Sequence record: PX880102.1
Strand: one strand, 5' to 3'
Source: a phage
Length of the DNA stretch: 64,000 nucleotides
Numbering within the stretch: the first letter of the stretch is position 1; every line of letters begins with the position of its first letter. The notes beneath the pieces are model-generated. The model did no database searches. It was not told where the DNA came from and saw only the letters and a program-made list of their open reading frames with translations. This document shows, piece after piece, positions 19,061 to 62,251 of this stretch. The translations under genes and the position numbers were made by a program.

Positions 19061-19969
19061 TTAAAGGTCATTCAAAAGGTCATCCAGGTCCGTGTCATCA
19101 GCACTAGATGAACTGCCAGAGCTTGAGCTCATAAAATCATCTTCAGTTTTTGTATTGAAGTCATCAACATTGAATGCATCCAAATCATCAGCAACTTTAT
19201 CAGCTTTCTTAGCGGCAGTCGCTGCAGCACCACCCATAGCAGCAGTTCCCATAACTTGACTGAACTTAGTGCTCAGCTCTTCAAACGATTTGAATTTATC
19301 TTTAGAAGTCATTTCAGAAAGGTCAACCATTTGTTCGAACAGTTCTTTTTGGAAAGATTCATCGTCAATGTTTGGAATCGCAGATTGATTCAGGAATTTA
19401 GATTCGTCGTAGTTACTAAAACCAGAAACTTGTTTAACTTTCAGTACAAAGTTAGCACCTTCCCACGGACAAGTTACATCAACCGGAGTTTCACCCATTT
19501 CAACATCAACTGCAATCATTGCATTGATTTTATCCAAGATTTTCTTACCGAAACGGTATTTAAATACTTTACCTTCATTTTCTGGAGCAGCTGGGTCTTT
19601 TACTACAAGAATGTTAGCCCAGTAAGAAGTTTTACGTTTAACAAGACCATACTCTTTATTGTCAGTGTTGTACAAATCATTTTTACTGATGTACTGACAT
19701 ACTGGGCAAGAATCGTAATCACCGTGGGTAGATGAACAGTTTTCAATATACCATTTACCATTTTTCTTGAAACCGTGATTTACAAGAATTGCGAATGGTG
19801 CTTGTTCATCATTTTTAGACGGAAGAAAACGAATTACTGCTTGACCGTTACCCGCATTGTCGAGTTTCAGTTTCCACTCGCCTTTATCTTCAGAAGAAAA
19901 ACCACCTTTATTTCCAGCCAGTTTAGCCATTTGTGCAGCGAGTTCAGCAGTAGATTTACGTTTAAACAT
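19061..19969 (-). CDS. 32: gp32 single-stranded DNA binding protein (302 aa)
   Basis: near-identical to T4 gp32 as recalled: zinc site H..C..C..C, acidic Ser/Asp-rich C-terminal tail. Confidence 0.95.
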
Positions 19970-57546: not shown

Positions 57547-57572
57547 ATTATACAATAAATATATAAAGCAAT
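57547..57572 (-). promoter_or_regulatory. MotA-box middle promoter for gene 56
   Basis: ATTGCTTTA box (57564-57572 rc), 11 nt, TATAAT (57547-57552 rc). Confidence 0.5.
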
Positions 57573-57583
57573 AAGGAGGACAT

Positions 57584-57784
57584 ATGGTACAAAAATTAAT
57601 GGCACTTGTTAATGCCATCAAAGGTAATAAGAAACGTATAGCTTTTACTATTTCTGCTATGGTAGGAATTTTACTCTGGAACTTTATTTTATCACCAATT
57701 GCAATTGCGCATGGTGTTAATATTCCAGTAGTTACTCTTGATACATTCGTAGATCTAGCATTTGCTTTAGTTGGGTTGATTTAA
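57584..57784 (+). CDS. possible small membrane protein (66 aa), only plus-strand ORF in this minus block
   Basis: AAGGAGGA 4-5 nt before ATG; two hydrophobic segments; lies in the 56-61 intergenic space; could be chance. Confidence 0.35.
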   Translation: MVQKLMALVNAIKGNKKRIAFTISAMVGILLWNFILSPIAIAHGVNIPVVTLDTFVDLAFALVGLI

Positions 57785-58809
57785 ATCTTAGCATATTTAG
57801 ATAGCCGCATTTTAGCCATCAACCCCTGGGCAATATTATTTTTCATATATTCCATAATTTGTTCAGGGGTTGCACCTTCCTTTCTAATCATATCATTAAC
57901 ATCTTTAGATTTCCAGGGAGATTTATCCCAAAACATAACCCTTTCTCCTGCATCAACTAATTTAGTCATTCGTTTGATAGTGTCAGGGTGACGAGGTTCA
58001 TTATCTAAAACCCACACTCGTCTATCTTTAAATGGAACAATTTCTAGGTCTAATTGACCACCCGTAATAGCTATACCATTTTCAATAAAAAGTGAATCTA
58101 TAGGTCCTTCTAGAACATATACATCGCCATCTTTAACTCGTTCGACTCCATAGATTTTTGTTGCCTCAGGATAAGCTTTAATGGTGATATATTTTTGAGG
58201 AGCATTTTTCTTTAATGCACGCCCTTGAAACGACTCGGCTTTTCCGTTAGCATTATAAATTGGAATAACAAGACGAGGCTCAGGTATTTCCTTTTTATAT
58301 GTTCCCGGTGCTATGCTATTAACCAATTTAGGCCATTCGGTTGTAAACCAAAGATATTTCCATTTATCCTTTGGAATACAACGAGCTTTTACGTATTTTA
58401 TAATTGGATGGTCTTCCGCCAGTTTATCTAATCTAACACATGACGGAAGAGATTTAATTATTTTCTTCTCAGGTTGTTTAGGAAGTTCTTTAGGTTTTTC
58501 TACTGGACGACTTTTACCTTTTTCTTTTCTTATTTCAAAGATATACTCACGATATAAATCAGGTTCAAACTCCTTTAAATATATTCCGATTGGTGCGTGA
58601 TAGTTACAGTTATAACAATGAATATTTCCTTCATTATTATCACCATAATACCATCCACGAGCTTTATTCTGGTCGGTTTTTGAATCTCCACAAACGGGGC
58701 ATCTAAACCGCAATTTAAAAGTTGAACTATTATTTACTTGTGTGAATTTAGGTAAATGAGCCAATGCACGATACGCAAACTCATTATCAATCCAAGGTAT
58801 TGATGACAT
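57781..58809 (-). CDS. 61: gp61 DNA primase (342 aa)
   Basis: N-terminal zinc ribbon CPVCGDSK...CYNC; TOPRIM; 342 aa. Confidence 0.9.
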   Translation of the reverse strand: MSSIPWIDNEFAYRALAHLPKFTQVNNSSTFKLRFRCPVCGDSKTDQNKARGWYYGDNNEGNIHCYNCNYHAPIGIYLKEFEPDLYREYIFEIRKEKGKSRPVEKPKELPKQPEKKIIKSLPSCVRLDKLAEDHPIIKYVKARCIPKDKWKYLWFTTEWPKLVNSIAPGTYKKEIPEPRLVIPIYNANGKAESFQGRALKKNAPQKYITIKAYPEATKIYGVERVKDGDVYVLEGPIDSLFIENGIAITGGQLDLEIVPFKDRRVWVLDNEPRHPDTIKRMTKLVDAGERVMFWDKSPWKSKDVNDMIRKEGATPEQIMEYMKNNIAQGLMAKMRLSKYAKI

Positions 58810-58811
58810 TT

Positions 58812-58976
58812 TTACTCTTCTTTTTCTTTAGATTCCTCTTTTTTCTTTTTAGGAATCTGTTCAGGACCTTTATTTACTACAGCACCTGATGTTGTTCCAG
58901 TAGAGATATTTTCAGGATTACCACCTGAATCTCCAGCAACCATATCTTCTTTAATAAATTCTTTATATGTTTTCAT
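58812..58976 (-). CDS. small Lys/Glu-rich protein (54 aa)
   Basis: manual translation; TAATATG coupling. Confidence 0.35.
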   Translation of the reverse strand: MKTYKEFIKEDMVAGDSGGNPENISTGTTSGAVVNKGPEQIPKKKKEESKEKEE

Positions 58977-59020
58977 ATTAACCTCTATTCATAAAAGCAT
59001 TAAAAATTTGGTCATCAATC
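58974..59020 (-). repeat. direct repeat copy A (about 47 bp, roughly 92 percent identical to copy B)
   Basis: catattaacctctattcataaaagcattaaaaatttggtcatcaatcga. Confidence 0.7.
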
Positions 59021-59334
59021 GATGGAATAGCAACTTTTTCTGCATCATTTAGCAAATCATTAATTTCATCAGATAGCATAACACATGTACCTTTATTTCC
59101 TGTAATTGTTACTGCACAATTACGAACGTTTTCTTTATTAAATTTTAGGTTAATATTTTCGTAATGAAAATCCTTTAATGCTGAATATATTTTTAAAATA
59201 AAATTGTCTTTTACTACAATAAACCCAACCTCACTATTAAAACGTGGTTCATGGAAACTGTAATAAACCTTTTCATCTATAAAATCGTATGAAATTTTTT
59301 CCATTTTTAAATATGAAAATTCAGAACTATACAT
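58978..59334 (-). CDS. hypothetical protein, single-domain paralog of the adjacent 213 aa gene (118 aa)
   Basis: shares the VKDN core and an identical C-terminal IDDQIFNAFMN(R/K)G tail with 59336..59977. Confidence 0.55.
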   Translation of the reverse strand: MYSSEFSYLKMEKISYDFIDEKVYYSFHEPRFNSEVGFIVVKDNFILKIYSALKDFHYENINLKFNKENVRNCAVTITGNKGTCVMLSDEINDLLNDAEKVAIPSIDDQIFNAFMNRG

Positions 59335-59378
59335 ATTAACCTTTATTCATAAAAGCATTAAAAATTTGATCGTCAATA
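59332..59378 (-). repeat. direct repeat copy B
   Basis: catattaacctttattcataaaagcattaaaaatttgatcgtcaataga. Confidence 0.7.
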
Positions 59379-59977
59379 GAAACTTTTACTTTAGGATGTT
59401 CTTCAAACGGTAATTCATATCCACATATTACAATTTTGTGATCGATACCAAAATACACAGAAGCAATATGATTAATATTATTTTCAGTGAAATCTAAATC
59501 AACATCAATATCTTTTTGACTAACGCTCAAAGGATAATTAATACGAATAATTCGATTATCTTTAACAAAGATTCCACCGACATACTCTGTGTTGCGTTTA
59601 AAGTTTACACGTTTCCTAAATGAAAAATATTCAGGTTCTTTATGAGCCCGACTCATAGGACACAATGAGTAGCTAGAATAAGAGATGTCAAATCCTACAC
59701 CTTCAATATGAGCCAACGTGTCATGATTAAACCAATTATAATCATATGCCAAATCCATTATATTGTAATATGTGAAAGGCACCGGATTAACATCATATAT
59801 TGTACCTTTAAAATCTGCCCAGGCAACGATTTCATTATCTTTAACAATTACAAAAATTGTGCCAATAAGATATCCACGGTTATTTTCATCAGGCGTTATA
59901 TTATAACATTGCGCATCAGGAAATTTACCGTATTTAAACGGTGGATTTTTGTGCATATAATAAATCATATTATTCAC
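59336..59977 (-). CDS. hypothetical two-repeat protein (213 aa) at the T4 61.2 position
   Basis: two internal VKDN-core repeats; tail shared with 58978..59334. Confidence 0.55.
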   Translation of the reverse strand: MNNMIYYMHKNPPFKYGKFPDAQCYNITPDENNRGYLIGTIFVIVKDNEIVAWADFKGTIYDVNPVPFTYYNIMDLAYDYNWFNHDTLAHIEGVGFDISYSSYSLCPMSRAHKEPEYFSFRKRVNFKRNTEYVGGIFVKDNRIIRINYPLSVSQKDIDVDLDFTENNINHIASVYFGIDHKIVICGYELPFEEHPKVKVSIDDQIFNAFMNKG

Positions 59978-60263
59978 CTGTGATTTCGGTTACGATATCT
60001 TTGTTATCAAAATTAGGGTCACAATACAAAACATAGTTATACTGCATCACACCACCTGATTTAAGCTGTTTTTGTACTTCAACTTTCATATTGGGACGAT
60101 CACGCTCAACGATATTCATAATATCCGCTTCAATTTGAGTTTCAACTTCAGTCTGATCTGCAGTCATAGACCATTCACACAAATCTTTATCATAACCTGC
60201 CATAGCAGGCTGAGCAGCACAAGAAGCTAAAGCAAAAATTGCAGCAAAGATAAATTTTTTCAT
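59970..60263 (-). CDS. sp: probable Spackle periplasmic superinfection-exclusion protein (97 aa)
   Basis: 97 aa; cleavable signal peptide ...AQPAMA|G; position between 61 and 41. Confidence 0.6.
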   Translation of the reverse strand: MKKFIFAAIFALASCAAQPAMAGYDKDLCEWSMTADQTEVETQIEADIMNIVERDRPNMKVEVQKQLKSGGVMQYNYVLYCDPNFDNKDIVTEITGE

Positions 60264-60323
60264 GATAATCTCCTCAGTAGTTTATGTTTATATAGTATCT
60301 CAATTTCCAACAAAAGTAAACAG

Positions 60324-60635
60324 CTATTTTAAAACTTCTGCATAATCACATGTTACAAACTGTTTCTCTAACTTGACGATTTTACGAAAATACCTTTTAC
60401 ACTGACGAATCTGTCGCTTCGTAGGACGTACAGCAAACTTAATAAATTCCACTCGACCAAATGGAGGACTTTCTTCTGCTGGAATATCTAGCACCAATTC
60501 CCACGTATCTGCAATAAGTGCTTTGAATTGCGTATTTTTCCTGACGTTATACGGAGTAGGTTTAAATAAAACAATATGCATATTATCCTCGGCAATCCAC
60601 TTCGCACACTTTCTTGTCATCAATGAAAGCTTCAA
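60324..60635 (-). CDS. hypothetical basic protein (103 aa)
   Basis: ORF track. Confidence 0.5.
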   Translation of the reverse strand: MKLSLMTRKCAKWIAEDNMHIVLFKPTPYNVRKNTQFKALIADTWELVLDIPAEESPPFGRVEFIKFAVRPTKRQIRQCKRYFRKIVKLEKQFVTCDYAEVLK

Positions 60636-60765
60636 CTAATGCTTTATTAACTTCAGCATATTGAGTAGTAGCCCATTGAACGTCATCTTTCATCATTGTG
60701 GTTTCTTTAGTAAACATGCTTTCATTCTTAAACCACCCCATAAAAACTACCTTTACCAATTCCAT
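60583..60765 (-). CDS. dmd: probable Dmd antitoxin (60 aa)
   Basis: 60 aa; immediately downstream of gene 41 with own early promoter, as in T4. Confidence 0.65.
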   Translation of the reverse strand: MELVKVVFMGWFKNESMFTKETTMMKDDVQWATTQYAEVNKALVEAFIDDKKVCEVDCRG

Positions 60766-60791: not shown

Positions 60792-60826
60792 ACTACTATA
60801 CCATAGTCTTGTCAGCTTGTAAACTA
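60792..60826 (-). promoter_or_regulatory. T4-type early promoter upstream of dmd
   Basis: GTTTAC (60819-60824 rc) overlapping gene 41 stop, 18 nt, TATAGT. Confidence 0.5.
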
Positions 60827-62251
60827 AAATTTTAATTCATTTGCCAAAGCATCTAACTGAGCTCGAGCTGATTCGTTTCTTTGATAGCGATTCTGTTCAG
60901 CCTGAATCTGCTGTGAACCTGCTACTTCACTCACTTCGGTTGGAGTAGAATCTTGTTCAATTTCTACCCATTTTTGATTTCCTTTTTGAACACCCATCAA
61001 AAACTTATTCCACTTATTCTTATCACCATATCGTGATTTGATTTGCTTAATGAGTTGTTGTTCAGCAGCTGCTAGCTCCTCGGTTTCAATGACCGCAAGC
61101 ATAAAATCAGCTGTTGCTGGAAGACCAGCAGATTCTGCAATATCGCTCATGTTAACATCGGAAGAGTCCCAAGCTTGTTTACCGACCTGTGCTGCAGTCC
61201 AAAGAACAGTTTCTGTTTCAACAGCCAGAGCACGTAATTCCTCTGCAATAGCTTTAACAGTTGTGTAACTATTTTCTGAATAAACTCTAATGCGGCAAGA
61301 TTTACAAATACCTAGATAGTCGACAATAATGATTGTTGGAACAAAATTCTTTTTGAGCTTCAATTCATTCAAGAGAGACCTGAATGTGTTAGCGTCTGCT
61401 CCACCAGTAGGATATTGCTTAACGATTAAACGACCGAGAGTAGATTTCTCACGCCATTTTTCCATTTTTCCTTTATACTCGGCATAAGAAATATGTCCAT
61501 CATCAATATCGTCAAGAGAAACATCGAGCATGTTAGCATCAATACGTTTAGCACAGACTTCTTCTGCCATTTCCATGGAGATATAAAGAACGTTATGACC
61601 AAGCTGCAAATAATCTGCTGCTAATGAACAAAGTCCTAATGATTTACCAACGTTAACGCCAGCCATTAAAACGTTCAGTGTTCCAGTCTCAGCTCCGCCT
61701 TTAGTAATTTTGTTTAGAATTCTGAGTTTAAATGGAACCTTACGAGCTTTATTCATATAAGATAGCCAACGCGCTTCATAGTCATCCATCCAATCATGAC
61801 CAACGTAGCTATCAAATGAAATTGATAATGCTTGGCGCATGATGTCAGGAATAGCACCTACATCTGGCATTTTCTTATTTCGTTTTTCCGGAGGAAGCTC
61901 AGCATTAGTTTGAATTTCGATTATTTTAGACGTAGCATTAAACATCGCCCTTTGCTGAACATATTTTTCTGTTTCTTTTACTAACCAGCTGTGGTCTTCT
62001 GGAGAATCAGTCAGTTTTGAAATAAGTGTTTTTACACCAGAATATTCTGTTTCAGTAAATGAACTATTTTCTAATGCAACATTTAACGCATTAATAGATG
62101 GAACGCTATGATACTCGTTGACATGAGATTTAATTAATTTGAATGTATTTTTAGCTGGACCACTTTCAAAATATTCTGAATCCATATATGGCCAAACTTT
62201 TGAAAAATAAGCTTGATCAAATATAAGATGAGAAAGAATAATTTCTACCAC
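60824..62251 (-). CDS. 41: gp41 replicative DNA helicase, DnaB-like (475 aa), GTG start
   Basis: MVEIILSHLIFDQ N-terminus; Walker A GVNVGKS; AAGGAG RBS 5 nt before GTG. Confidence 0.95.
   Translation of the reverse strand: MVEIILSHLIFDQAYFSKVWPYMDSEYFESGPAKNTFKLIKSHVNEYHSVPSINALNVALENSSFTETEYSGVKTLISKLTDSPEDHSWLVKETEKYVQQRAMFNATSKIIEIQTNAELPPEKRNKKMPDVGAIPDIMRQALSISFDSYVGHDWMDDYEARWLSYMNKARKVPFKLRILNKITKGGAETGTLNVLMAGVNVGKSLGLCSLAADYLQLGHNVLYISMEMAEEVCAKRIDANMLDVSLDDIDDGHISYAEYKGKMEKWREKSTLGRLIVKQYPTGGADANTFRSLLNELKLKKNFVPTIIIVDYLGICKSCRIRVYSENSYTTVKAIAEELRALAVETETVLWTAAQVGKQAWDSSDVNMSDIAESAGLPATADFMLAVIETEELAAAEQQLIKQIKSRYGDKNKWNKFLMGVQKGNQKWVEIEQDSTPTEVSEVAGSQQIQAEQNRYQRNESARAQLDALANELKF

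Follow-up and report, generated by a model that had tools for sequence, protein, structure and literature searches.

The 64,000-nucleotide (nt) stretch of phage DNA in record PX880102.1, which we call the window, carries two adjacent genes of the AdfA family on its minus strand: adfA itself and a gene for a protein of 118 amino acids (aa). Both genes end in the same direct repeat. In our assessment, the two genes are probably old AdfA paralogues, and the repeat probably reflects joint constraint on a shared peptide, on the middle promoter P61 and on translational coupling, while also acting as a substrate for recombination. A preliminary description, made from the sequence alone, had taken the repeat to fit a recent duplication or gene conversion. 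The main features are as follows.

59336..59968, minus strand: adfA (T4 gene 61.2), 210 aa plus stop (Pfam PF23813, PHROG 3781, 100% identical 210-aa database protein)
59678..59968, minus strand: AdfA N-module, residues 1-97, with VKDN hairpin and no tail (hhalign, AlphaFold2 element order)
59339..59677, minus strand: AdfA C-module, residues 98-210, with His167 and tail (alignments)
58978..59334, minus strand: 118-aa single-module AdfA paralogue, RB32ORF033c type (Pfam AdfA, PHROG 4122, RB51 annotation)
59203..59214 (118-aa gene), 59834-59845 and 59555-59566 (adfA), minus strand: VKDN hairpin codons
59332..59380, minus strand: direct repeat, upstream copy (AdfA tail codons, TAA, T, ATG of the 118-aa gene)
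58974..59022, minus strand: direct repeat, downstream copy (tail codons of the 118-aa gene, TAA, T, ATG of 61.1)

Two AdfA-family genes in tandem

The source of the window is a Tequatrovirus of the RB32/RB51/AR1 type, because positions 58700-60300 share 99.9% identity with Escherichia phage vB_EcoM-UFV09 and 97% with RB51, AR1 and wV7. The open reading frame (ORF) listing places the longer gene at 59336..59977 on the minus strand, 213 aa from a GTG at 59977. An ATG at 59968, one base past the spackle stop codon, gives 210 aa. Database homologues that are 88-100% identical have 210 aa, and the wider AdfA set has 208-216 aa; because of these lengths, ATG 59968 is most likely the real start.

The long ORF matches Pfam PF23813, 'Anti-DarT factor A', with E = 1.5e-136 (452.9 bits against a gathering threshold of 27 bits; ORF 4-213 on profile positions 1-211), which is the full two-module architecture. 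It also matches PHROG 3781 and lies between sp (61.3) and 61.1, the expected position in Tevenvirinae. T4 gene 61.2 is called adfA (PMC9391042, PMC11257639). Together, the Pfam match and this naming establish what had earlier been suggested from position, that the 213-aa ORF is adfA. The variable island between genes 61 and 41, in which the preliminary description had set these genes, is likewise familiar as the literature's 'anti-TA island' (TA, toxin-antitoxin), which in T-even phages comprises dmd, tifA/61.4 and adfA (PMC9391042).

The 118-aa protein passes the Pfam AdfA cut-off as well (34.4 bits against 27). Its match covers profile positions 113-211 only, and it does not have the two-module architecture. 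It matches PHROG 4122 with E = 1.4e-72, and the GenBank record of RB51 annotates the same gene as RB32ORF033c, 'similar to gp61.2'. The hypothetical proteins of T-even phages that are filed as RB32ORF033c or PHROG 4122 are thus the product of this gene. A full-text literature search for 'ORF033c' found no paper mentioning RB32ORF033c. Compared with AdfA, the 118-aa protein shares the module fold, the tail and the Pfam cut-off, but it has one module instead of two and a different specificity helix.

AdfA is a tandem of two modules

As had been described, the VKDN core is present twice in the long ORF and once in the short one; the positions are 42 and 135 in AdfA and 41 in the 118-aa protein. 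We compared the N-half of AdfA by hhalign with a profile of short-family bodies from which the tails and the AdfA C-halves had been left out. The alignment reached E = 2.7e-5 and a probability of 75% over 59 columns, with VKDN in register, and its score of 31.4 compares with 10.9 ± 2.3 for shuffles, of which 0/200 scored as high. An exhaustive profile search of 1.84 billion representative proteins also matched AdfA in two stretches.

Structure models gave the same picture. The AlphaFold2 model of the 118-aa protein had a predicted local distance difference test (pLDDT) score of 84, with the core above 90. It consists of strands 8-17, 22-29, 34-42, 45-51 and 56-64, helix 67-78, strand 84-87 and helix 89-101, followed by a low-confidence linker (102-105) and a tail helix (106-115). 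The AdfA model was less confident (pLDDT 67), and both of its halves repeat this order of elements; in the N-module these are strands 38-43, 46-51 and 57-64, helix 67-80 and strand 91-94. VKDN lies in the models at the turn between the third and fourth strands. AdfA therefore consists of two modules in tandem. Each is about 100 residues long and is built as a five-strand beta meander, which includes the VKDN hairpin, followed by a helix and a strand. The 118-aa gene encodes a free-standing single module equivalent to AdfA residues 98-210.

The family is small. Among the 1.84 billion representatives it comprised 7 full-length clusters and 2 short fragments, and every member that had a source name or was located on DNA came from a T-even-type phage of enterobacteria. 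We found no relatives outside the AdfA family by structure or sequence; a search of the PDB gave nothing below E = 0.3, and PADLOC gave nothing. Two very long proteins that came up in the search, P0070 (4165 aa, E = 2e-15) and P0071 (3500 aa, E = 2e-6), were judged spurious because their scores are sums of many 2-11-bit matches to T/V/D-rich adhesin-like repeats of the VVVTITG type.

Two further features of adfA were observed. AdfA alleles are mosaic: the N-module (59678-59968) falls into two deep classes, a T4 type and a window/RB69 type, with about 57-62% protein identity (in comparisons with loci L005, L027 and L028). The classes are combined with different C-ends, in the presence or absence of the 118-aa gene; slur02 has a T4-type N-module together with this gene. 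There is also a 19-nt direct repeat, 89% identical, within adfA (59550-59568 and 59829-59847), and both AdfA VKDN motifs use the codons GTT AAA GAT AAT, though the modules are otherwise barely alignable. The shared codons could be due to chance, codon bias or intragenic exchange.

Paralogy and apparent age of the two genes

BLASTP aligned the 118-aa protein to the C-half of AdfA with E = 5e-11, a value carried almost wholly by the tail; with both tails removed it was non-significant (E = 0.09-0.27). Profile-profile comparison of the tail-less 118-aa family with the AdfA C-half gave E = 8.9e-7 and a probability of 91%, with a score of 38.9 against 11.1 ± 2.1 for column shuffles. When narrow subfamily profiles without tails were aligned by hhalign the signal was weak (P 0.002-0.05), and only broader profiles gave clear signals. 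Formal alignment of the modules is thus significant between profiles and not between tail-less sequence pairs. With the N-half result given above, these comparisons indicate that adfA and the 118-aa gene are paralogues with three copies of the module between them, in agreement with the preliminary description.

The claim that the duplication was recent fared less well. Outside the tail the two proteins are about 28% identical. At the nucleotide level, 123/282 positions of the gene bodies are identical (44%), compared with 38/42 in the tails, and identical residues use the same codon in 9/26 cases in the body and in 9/12 in the tail (Fisher p = 0.035). Synonymous sites between the bodies look saturated. 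In addition, the 118-aa gene has orthologues in Gaprivervirus (the '61.2' of VR7, 119 aa) that are 46-50% identical to it, with a profile E of 1e-22. Because the 118-aa protein is nearer to these orthologues than to AdfA (37%), the split between the paralogues appears to predate the separation of Tequatrovirus and Gaprivervirus. Taken together, the diverged bodies, the few shared codons, the non-significant tail-less BLASTP and the orthologues in another genus argue against a recent event.

A direct repeat that encodes an invariant tail

The two copies of the direct repeat are 49 nt long, 92% identical and spaced 358 bp apart; the repeat and its spacing had been recognised before, with a length of 47 bp that we correct here. 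A 46-nt core, searched with up to 3 mismatches, occurred exactly 2 times in the 64 kb and 0 times in 100 shuffles. The repeat is therefore not a common intergenic motif of the window. Both proteins end in SIDDQIFNAFMN(K/R)G, confirming the common tail noted in the preliminary description, and a six-frame regular-expression search of the window found only these two copies of the tail motif.

DDQIFNAFM is invariant in all subfamilies, namely AdfA, the 116-125-aa forms and the 143-148-aa forms, whose bodies share 22-30% identity. No amino-acid replacement was found in it among the loci read. Its codons vary synonymously between genera (GAT/GAC, CAA/CAG, ATT/ATA, GCT/GCC/GCA, TTT/TTC). The C-terminal modules of the family thus end in an invariant amphipathic helix on a flexible linker, which we infer to be a shared functional peptide. 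We had also considered a clamp-binding or PIP-like motif in the tail and dropped it, as the spacing of the hydrophobic residues does not fit.

The end of the tail varies with the gene that follows it. Before 61.1 the tail ends in AGAGGT in the window (58981-58992), RB51 and T4; the downstream copy of VR7 and MN01 has CGAGGT. In front of the short paralogue the tail has a weaker Shine-Dalgarno variant at its end: AAAGGT in the upstream copy of the window (59339-59350) and in RB51, AGAGAT in slur02, and CGAGAT in VR7 and MN01. These variants may tune translation of the short gene.

Middle promoter P61 within the tail

T4 has a MotA-dependent middle promoter, P61, with a mapped start at 19122 according to Table 1 of Hinton's review (PMC2988021), which cites Marshall, Sharma and Hinton 1999. 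The preliminary description had not noticed this promoter. In T4 coordinates the ATG of 61.1 is at 19130 and the stop codon of 61.2 at 19132-19134; because of these positions, the -10 element and the MotA box of P61 lie within the last 9 codons of 61.2. The +1 that we predicted from the T4 sequence is 19122, exactly the mapped start. We then placed the corresponding elements in the window.

58968..59002, minus strand: P61 middle promoter, with MotA box TAATGCTTTT at 59002->58993, 12-nt spacer, -10 TAATAT at 58980->58975 and predicted +1 at A58968
59326..59360, minus strand: second, P61-like promoter, with MotA box at 59360->59351, 12-nt spacer, -10 at 59338->59333 and predicted +1 at about 59326

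From the first codon of the tail as far as the start site, the downstream copy in the window has the same sequence as T4. Its MotA box, 12-nt spacer and -10, and the predicted +1, are in agreement with the mapped start at 19122. The window has a second copy, 358 bp upstream in the adfA tail, and the spacers of the two copies differ by one A/G. In both, the MotA box is formed by the N-A-F codons and the -10 by the GGT-TAA-T-AT(G) junction. TAATGCTTTT matches 9/10 positions of (a/t)(a/t)(a/t)TGCTTtA, a consensus centred near -30, and TAATAT fits the sigma-70 -10 pattern TAnnnT after a 12-nt spacer, within the 12 ± 1 bp rule. Both copies match TGCTTYN-N11-13-TANNNT, a pattern with 19 matches in the window where 8.2 ± 2.8 are expected. 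Another match, TGCTTTATATATTTATTGTATAAT at 57547-57570 on the minus strand, is found a short way upstream of gene 56, near the place that P56/69 has in T4.

Because each cassette ends in the repeat element, we predict two P61-like promoters in the window. The downstream start would fall on the third base of codon 3 of 61.1 and the upstream one inside codon 3 of the 118-aa gene, and both copies presumably fire. The differences among tails (TCT/TCG, GAT/GAC, AAA/AGA, GGT/GAT) are all outside the MotA box and the -10. The excess of shared codons in the tail can therefore be explained without gene conversion. We found no statement in the literature consulted that P61 sits in a conserved coding tail.

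Deletion junctions and natural arrangements

Recombination through short homologies is known to amplify and delete sequences in this region of T4 (PMC9391042). With the window read in coding orientation, T4, MZ234013 (locus L026) and phage 132 (L027) each match it over 1-932 and 1242-2483, two blocks whose overlap is exactly the 49-nt repeat. The three are clean deletions of the 358-bp unit. In T4 the tail and downstream sequence (GAT GAC ... AGA GGT TAA T ATG AAA ACA) equal the tail of the window's 118-aa gene and not that of its adfA. L026 and L027 have a chimeric tail, in which the window-like adfA end AAA GTT TCT ATT GAC GAT is joined to AGA GGT TAA T ATG AAA ACA TAT, the tail of the 118-aa gene plus the start of 61.1. 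Such a chimera would be the expected product of a crossover in the 30-nt identical core. The exact 358-bp junctions and the chimeric tails support deletion of the 118-aa gene by recombination between the repeat copies. A synthetic query with the K-type tail (GAC GAT..AAA GGT) joined directly to 61.1 had, among the matches listed, no full-length match above 98.0%, and the best were the GAC GAT..AGA chimeras.

Other junctions were also found. T2 matches the window over 1-295 and 919-2483, so that adfA is missing from its start codon up to a point some 10-14 nt short of its stop; the 12-nt spacer of T2, TTAGAGGTTAGT, agrees with the tail end, ATAGAGGTTAAT, at 10/12 positions. slur02 has both the 118-aa gene and a T4-type adfA allele, with GAT GAC ... 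AGA GAT as a third variant of the tail. In the Gaprivervirus locus L016 the 119-aa paralogue is missing, and the tail of the upstream paralogue runs straight into the gene that would normally come after the missing one. Gaprivervirus- and Dhakavirus-like loci from IMG/VR (L013-L021) have presence/absence variants of their own, with 157+119 aa, 167+117 aa, or a single gene of 122, 145 or 146 aa.

We determined the frequency of each arrangement by junction-specific megablast among 50,697 phage records; IMG/VR gave 19 loci, too few for a population tabulation.

Both genes (adfA|118 junction): 158 records
Short gene only, T2 type (sp|118 junction): 141 records, including T2
adfA only: about 169 records (468 in all, less 158 and 141, within the reach of megablast)

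The first two counts sum to 299, in line with the roughly 293-299 records in which tblastn found the 118-aa gene at an identity of at least 90%. The AdfA N-module was present in 487 records across Tevenvirinae.

Conservation and function of the 118-aa gene

About 293 genomes carry the 118-aa gene intact, and the ratio of nonsynonymous to synonymous substitution rates (dN/dS) between its orthologues is 0.05-0.5, and 0.05-0.3 in most comparisons. The gene is under purifying selection. Its translation is coupled within the operon, and it can also occur by itself.

In RB69, the AdfA substitution R164H is the determinant of DarT1 binding, and RB69 AdfA(R164H) is the only form for which binding and neutralisation of a DarT toxin are reported in PMC11257639. 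The window AdfA has His167 (59468-59470) at the position aligned to RB69 R164, which is the DarT1-neutralising state. The 118-aa protein has Asn at this position, and the helix after the meander, in which the RB69 determinant is located, also differs (ENNINHIASVYF in AdfA, KENVRNCAVTIT in the 118-aa protein). The 118-aa protein may be a binder of a toxin or defence protein, like AdfA, with a different specificity helix.

T2 is described in PMC11257639 as a phage that 'naturally lacks an adfA homolog'. T2 (L002 2001-2357, PV648364.1) encodes a 118-aa paralogue that is 95% identical to the window's, directly after spackle. Published as a phage without an adfA homologue, it does carry a single-module AdfA paralogue.

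Proposed constraints on the repeat and its origin

We propose that the duplication is old and that the 49-nt repeat is not the trace of a recent one. Three constraints would act on it: selection on the DDQIFNAFM peptide, the MotA/AsiA-dependent P61 that would serve the primase gene, and a Shine-Dalgarno and stop/start coupling signal (AGAGGT-TAA-T-ATG) for the next gene. The copies would offer the T4 recombination system up to 49 nt of homology, including the 30-nt identical core. Crossing-over there would remove the exact 358-bp unit with the 118-aa gene, or re-insert it from a co-infecting relative, and a second indel, from the spackle stop codon to the last 10-14 nt of the tail, would remove adfA. 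The outcome would be the natural three-way polymorphism of adfA only, both genes, or the short gene only.

Several observations weigh against parts of this proposal. The tail is modelled by AlphaFold2 with low confidence and has no known partner. The MotA box is one base off consensus and is less well kept in Gaprivervirus and RB69 (TGCCTTC, TGCATTT); the activity of the promoters, especially the upstream copy, is deduced from sequence, and the peptide may by itself explain most of the nucleotide conservation of the tail. The chimeric tails, seen in only 3 records, could have arisen by two independent synonymous changes instead of a crossover, and the junctions would fit either loss or gain of the cassette. 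As to the putative role of the 118-aa protein as a toxin inhibitor, T2 delta-adfN becomes DarTG1-sensitive, losing four logs of plating (literature), although the 118-aa gene is present, and the T2 paralogue therefore does not, on this indirect evidence, neutralise the DarT1 tested. T4 delta-adfA is likewise without phenotype (PMC11257639).

We considered whether the 3' half of adfA could instead have been duplicated in tandem recently, leaving the repeat, or whether recent gene conversion could have homogenised the last 45 nt. The excess of shared codons in the tail would fit such an event, and paralogues within a genus share states that differ between genera (GCT vs GCC; AGA/AAA vs CGA). Both tails of locus L021 have CAG and TTC where the upstream tail of VR7 has CAA and TTT, and in L007 GAC GAT occurs in the downstream and not the upstream tail; these cases and the within-genus states are hints of occasional exchange between tails. 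However, the bodies are in the twilight zone, with apparently saturated synonymous sites and orthologues in another genus. The nucleotides that are invariant in Tequatrovirus are those of the P61 MotA box and -10, and elsewhere in the tail 3/8 degenerate codons differ, which is indistinguishable from the body. Because peptide and promoter constraint can account for the repeat, with the peptide invariant under synonymous codons between genera, gene conversion is not needed, and we regard either event as quite unlikely. It is also very unlikely, in our judgement, that the repeat is kept purely as DNA, as promoter and ribosome-binding site, with the peptide as a functionless passenger. P61 does map exactly onto the tail, AGA GGT TAA T ATG is a Shine-Dalgarno and coupling signal, and AlphaFold2 does not dock the tail confidently on the module. 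But in D-D-Q-I, upstream of the MotA box, the amino acids are invariant while the codons vary (GAT/GAC, CAA/CAG, ATT/ATA), and the MotA core is changed synonymously in Gaprivervirus and RB69 (GCC TTC, GCA) with an identical peptide. The promoter therefore cannot explain a peptide that is conserved across subfamilies with such divergent bodies.

A remaining alternative concerns the 118-aa ORF, which might be a decaying leftover of a partial duplication, or a mere subunit or regulator of AdfA. Its Asn at the DarT1-binding position and the DarTG1 sensitivity of T2 delta-adfN would fit. Against this stand its intact frame and low dN/dS, its confidently predicted fold, and its occurrence alone, without adfA, in about 141 genomes including T2; single-module relatives are also the sole family members in some Gaprivervirus and Dhakavirus genomes. 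We find this explanation highly improbable.

Under the reading that we prefer, of old paralogues with a constrained repeat, a more speculative extension can be made, which we advance tentatively and think rather doubtful. DDQIFNAFM could be the common effector or docking peptide of a series of single-module binders that are diversifying rapidly (the N and C modules of AdfA and the 118-, 119- and 146-aa forms), each directed at a different toxin or defence protein. Every cassette would then bring its own primase promoter P61, with the MotA box in the peptide codons, together with a recombination handle, and the locus would be a self-contained site of cassette exchange.

Relation to known systems

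AdfA and its Pfam family, the RB32ORF033c annotation note, P61 and short-homology recombination in T4 are already known. We did not find descriptions of the internal duplication of AdfA, of the single-module family with its invariant tail, of the coincidence of the tail with P61 and the duplicated promoter, or of the natural variation among three cassette arrangements, with their junctions.

The amplifications and deletions through short homologies that are known in T4 (Srikant et al. 2022, PMC9391042) involve the same neighbourhood and the same kind of recombination-driven change in copy number. There, the homologies are chance microhomologies of 6-10 bp in laboratory-evolved clones, whereas the window repeat is 49 nt, natural and selected, and variants of the window type are standing polymorphisms in hundreds of isolates.

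A second comparison is with the PeSL cassettes in hyperplastic regions of T4-type phages, which Arbiol et al. are said to have described in 2010: repeated promoter-bearing sequences that reportedly lie on either side of small accessory genes and are presumed mediators of modular shuffling. PeSLs are intergenic units of early promoter and stem-loop found at many loci. The window repeat, in contrast, combines a coding tail with a middle promoter, and within the window it is confined to this locus.

Few phage inhibitors of toxin-antitoxin defence have been characterised, and AdfA is among them. To what is known of it these results add a repeated module, single-module relatives in about 300 sequenced tequatroviruses and a common invariant tail. 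About 141 of the approximately 300 tequatroviruses with the short gene, T2 included, appear to be without adfA. The overlap of the tail with P61 cautions against reading nucleotide conservation at gene ends as recent duplication; here one short sequence would satisfy protein, promoter and translational-coupling constraints at once, while driving a presence/absence polymorphism.

Neighbouring genes

Every gene of the locus is on the minus strand, in the order helicase 41, dmd, 61.4/tifA, spackle, the 213-aa ORF, the 118-aa ORF, 61.1 and primase 61.

60824-62251, minus strand: helicase 41
60583-60765, minus strand: dmd
between dmd and spackle, minus strand: 61.4/tifA
59970-60263, minus strand: spackle (sp, 61.3)
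58812-58976, minus strand: gene 61.1, 54 aa, outside the AdfA family, with the P61 start site in its first codons (PHROG 1823, annotation)
57781-58809, minus strand: primase 61

The span 58812-59977 that had been assigned to the tandem genes does contain both paralogues, but its start takes in gene 61.1, which is not a member of the family. Between genes 56 and 61, the window has a 66-aa ORF on the plus strand (57584-57784), hydrophobic and membrane-like, that is a homologue of RB32ORF030w. In T4 the same position is occupied by dam, so the window phage is without dam there.

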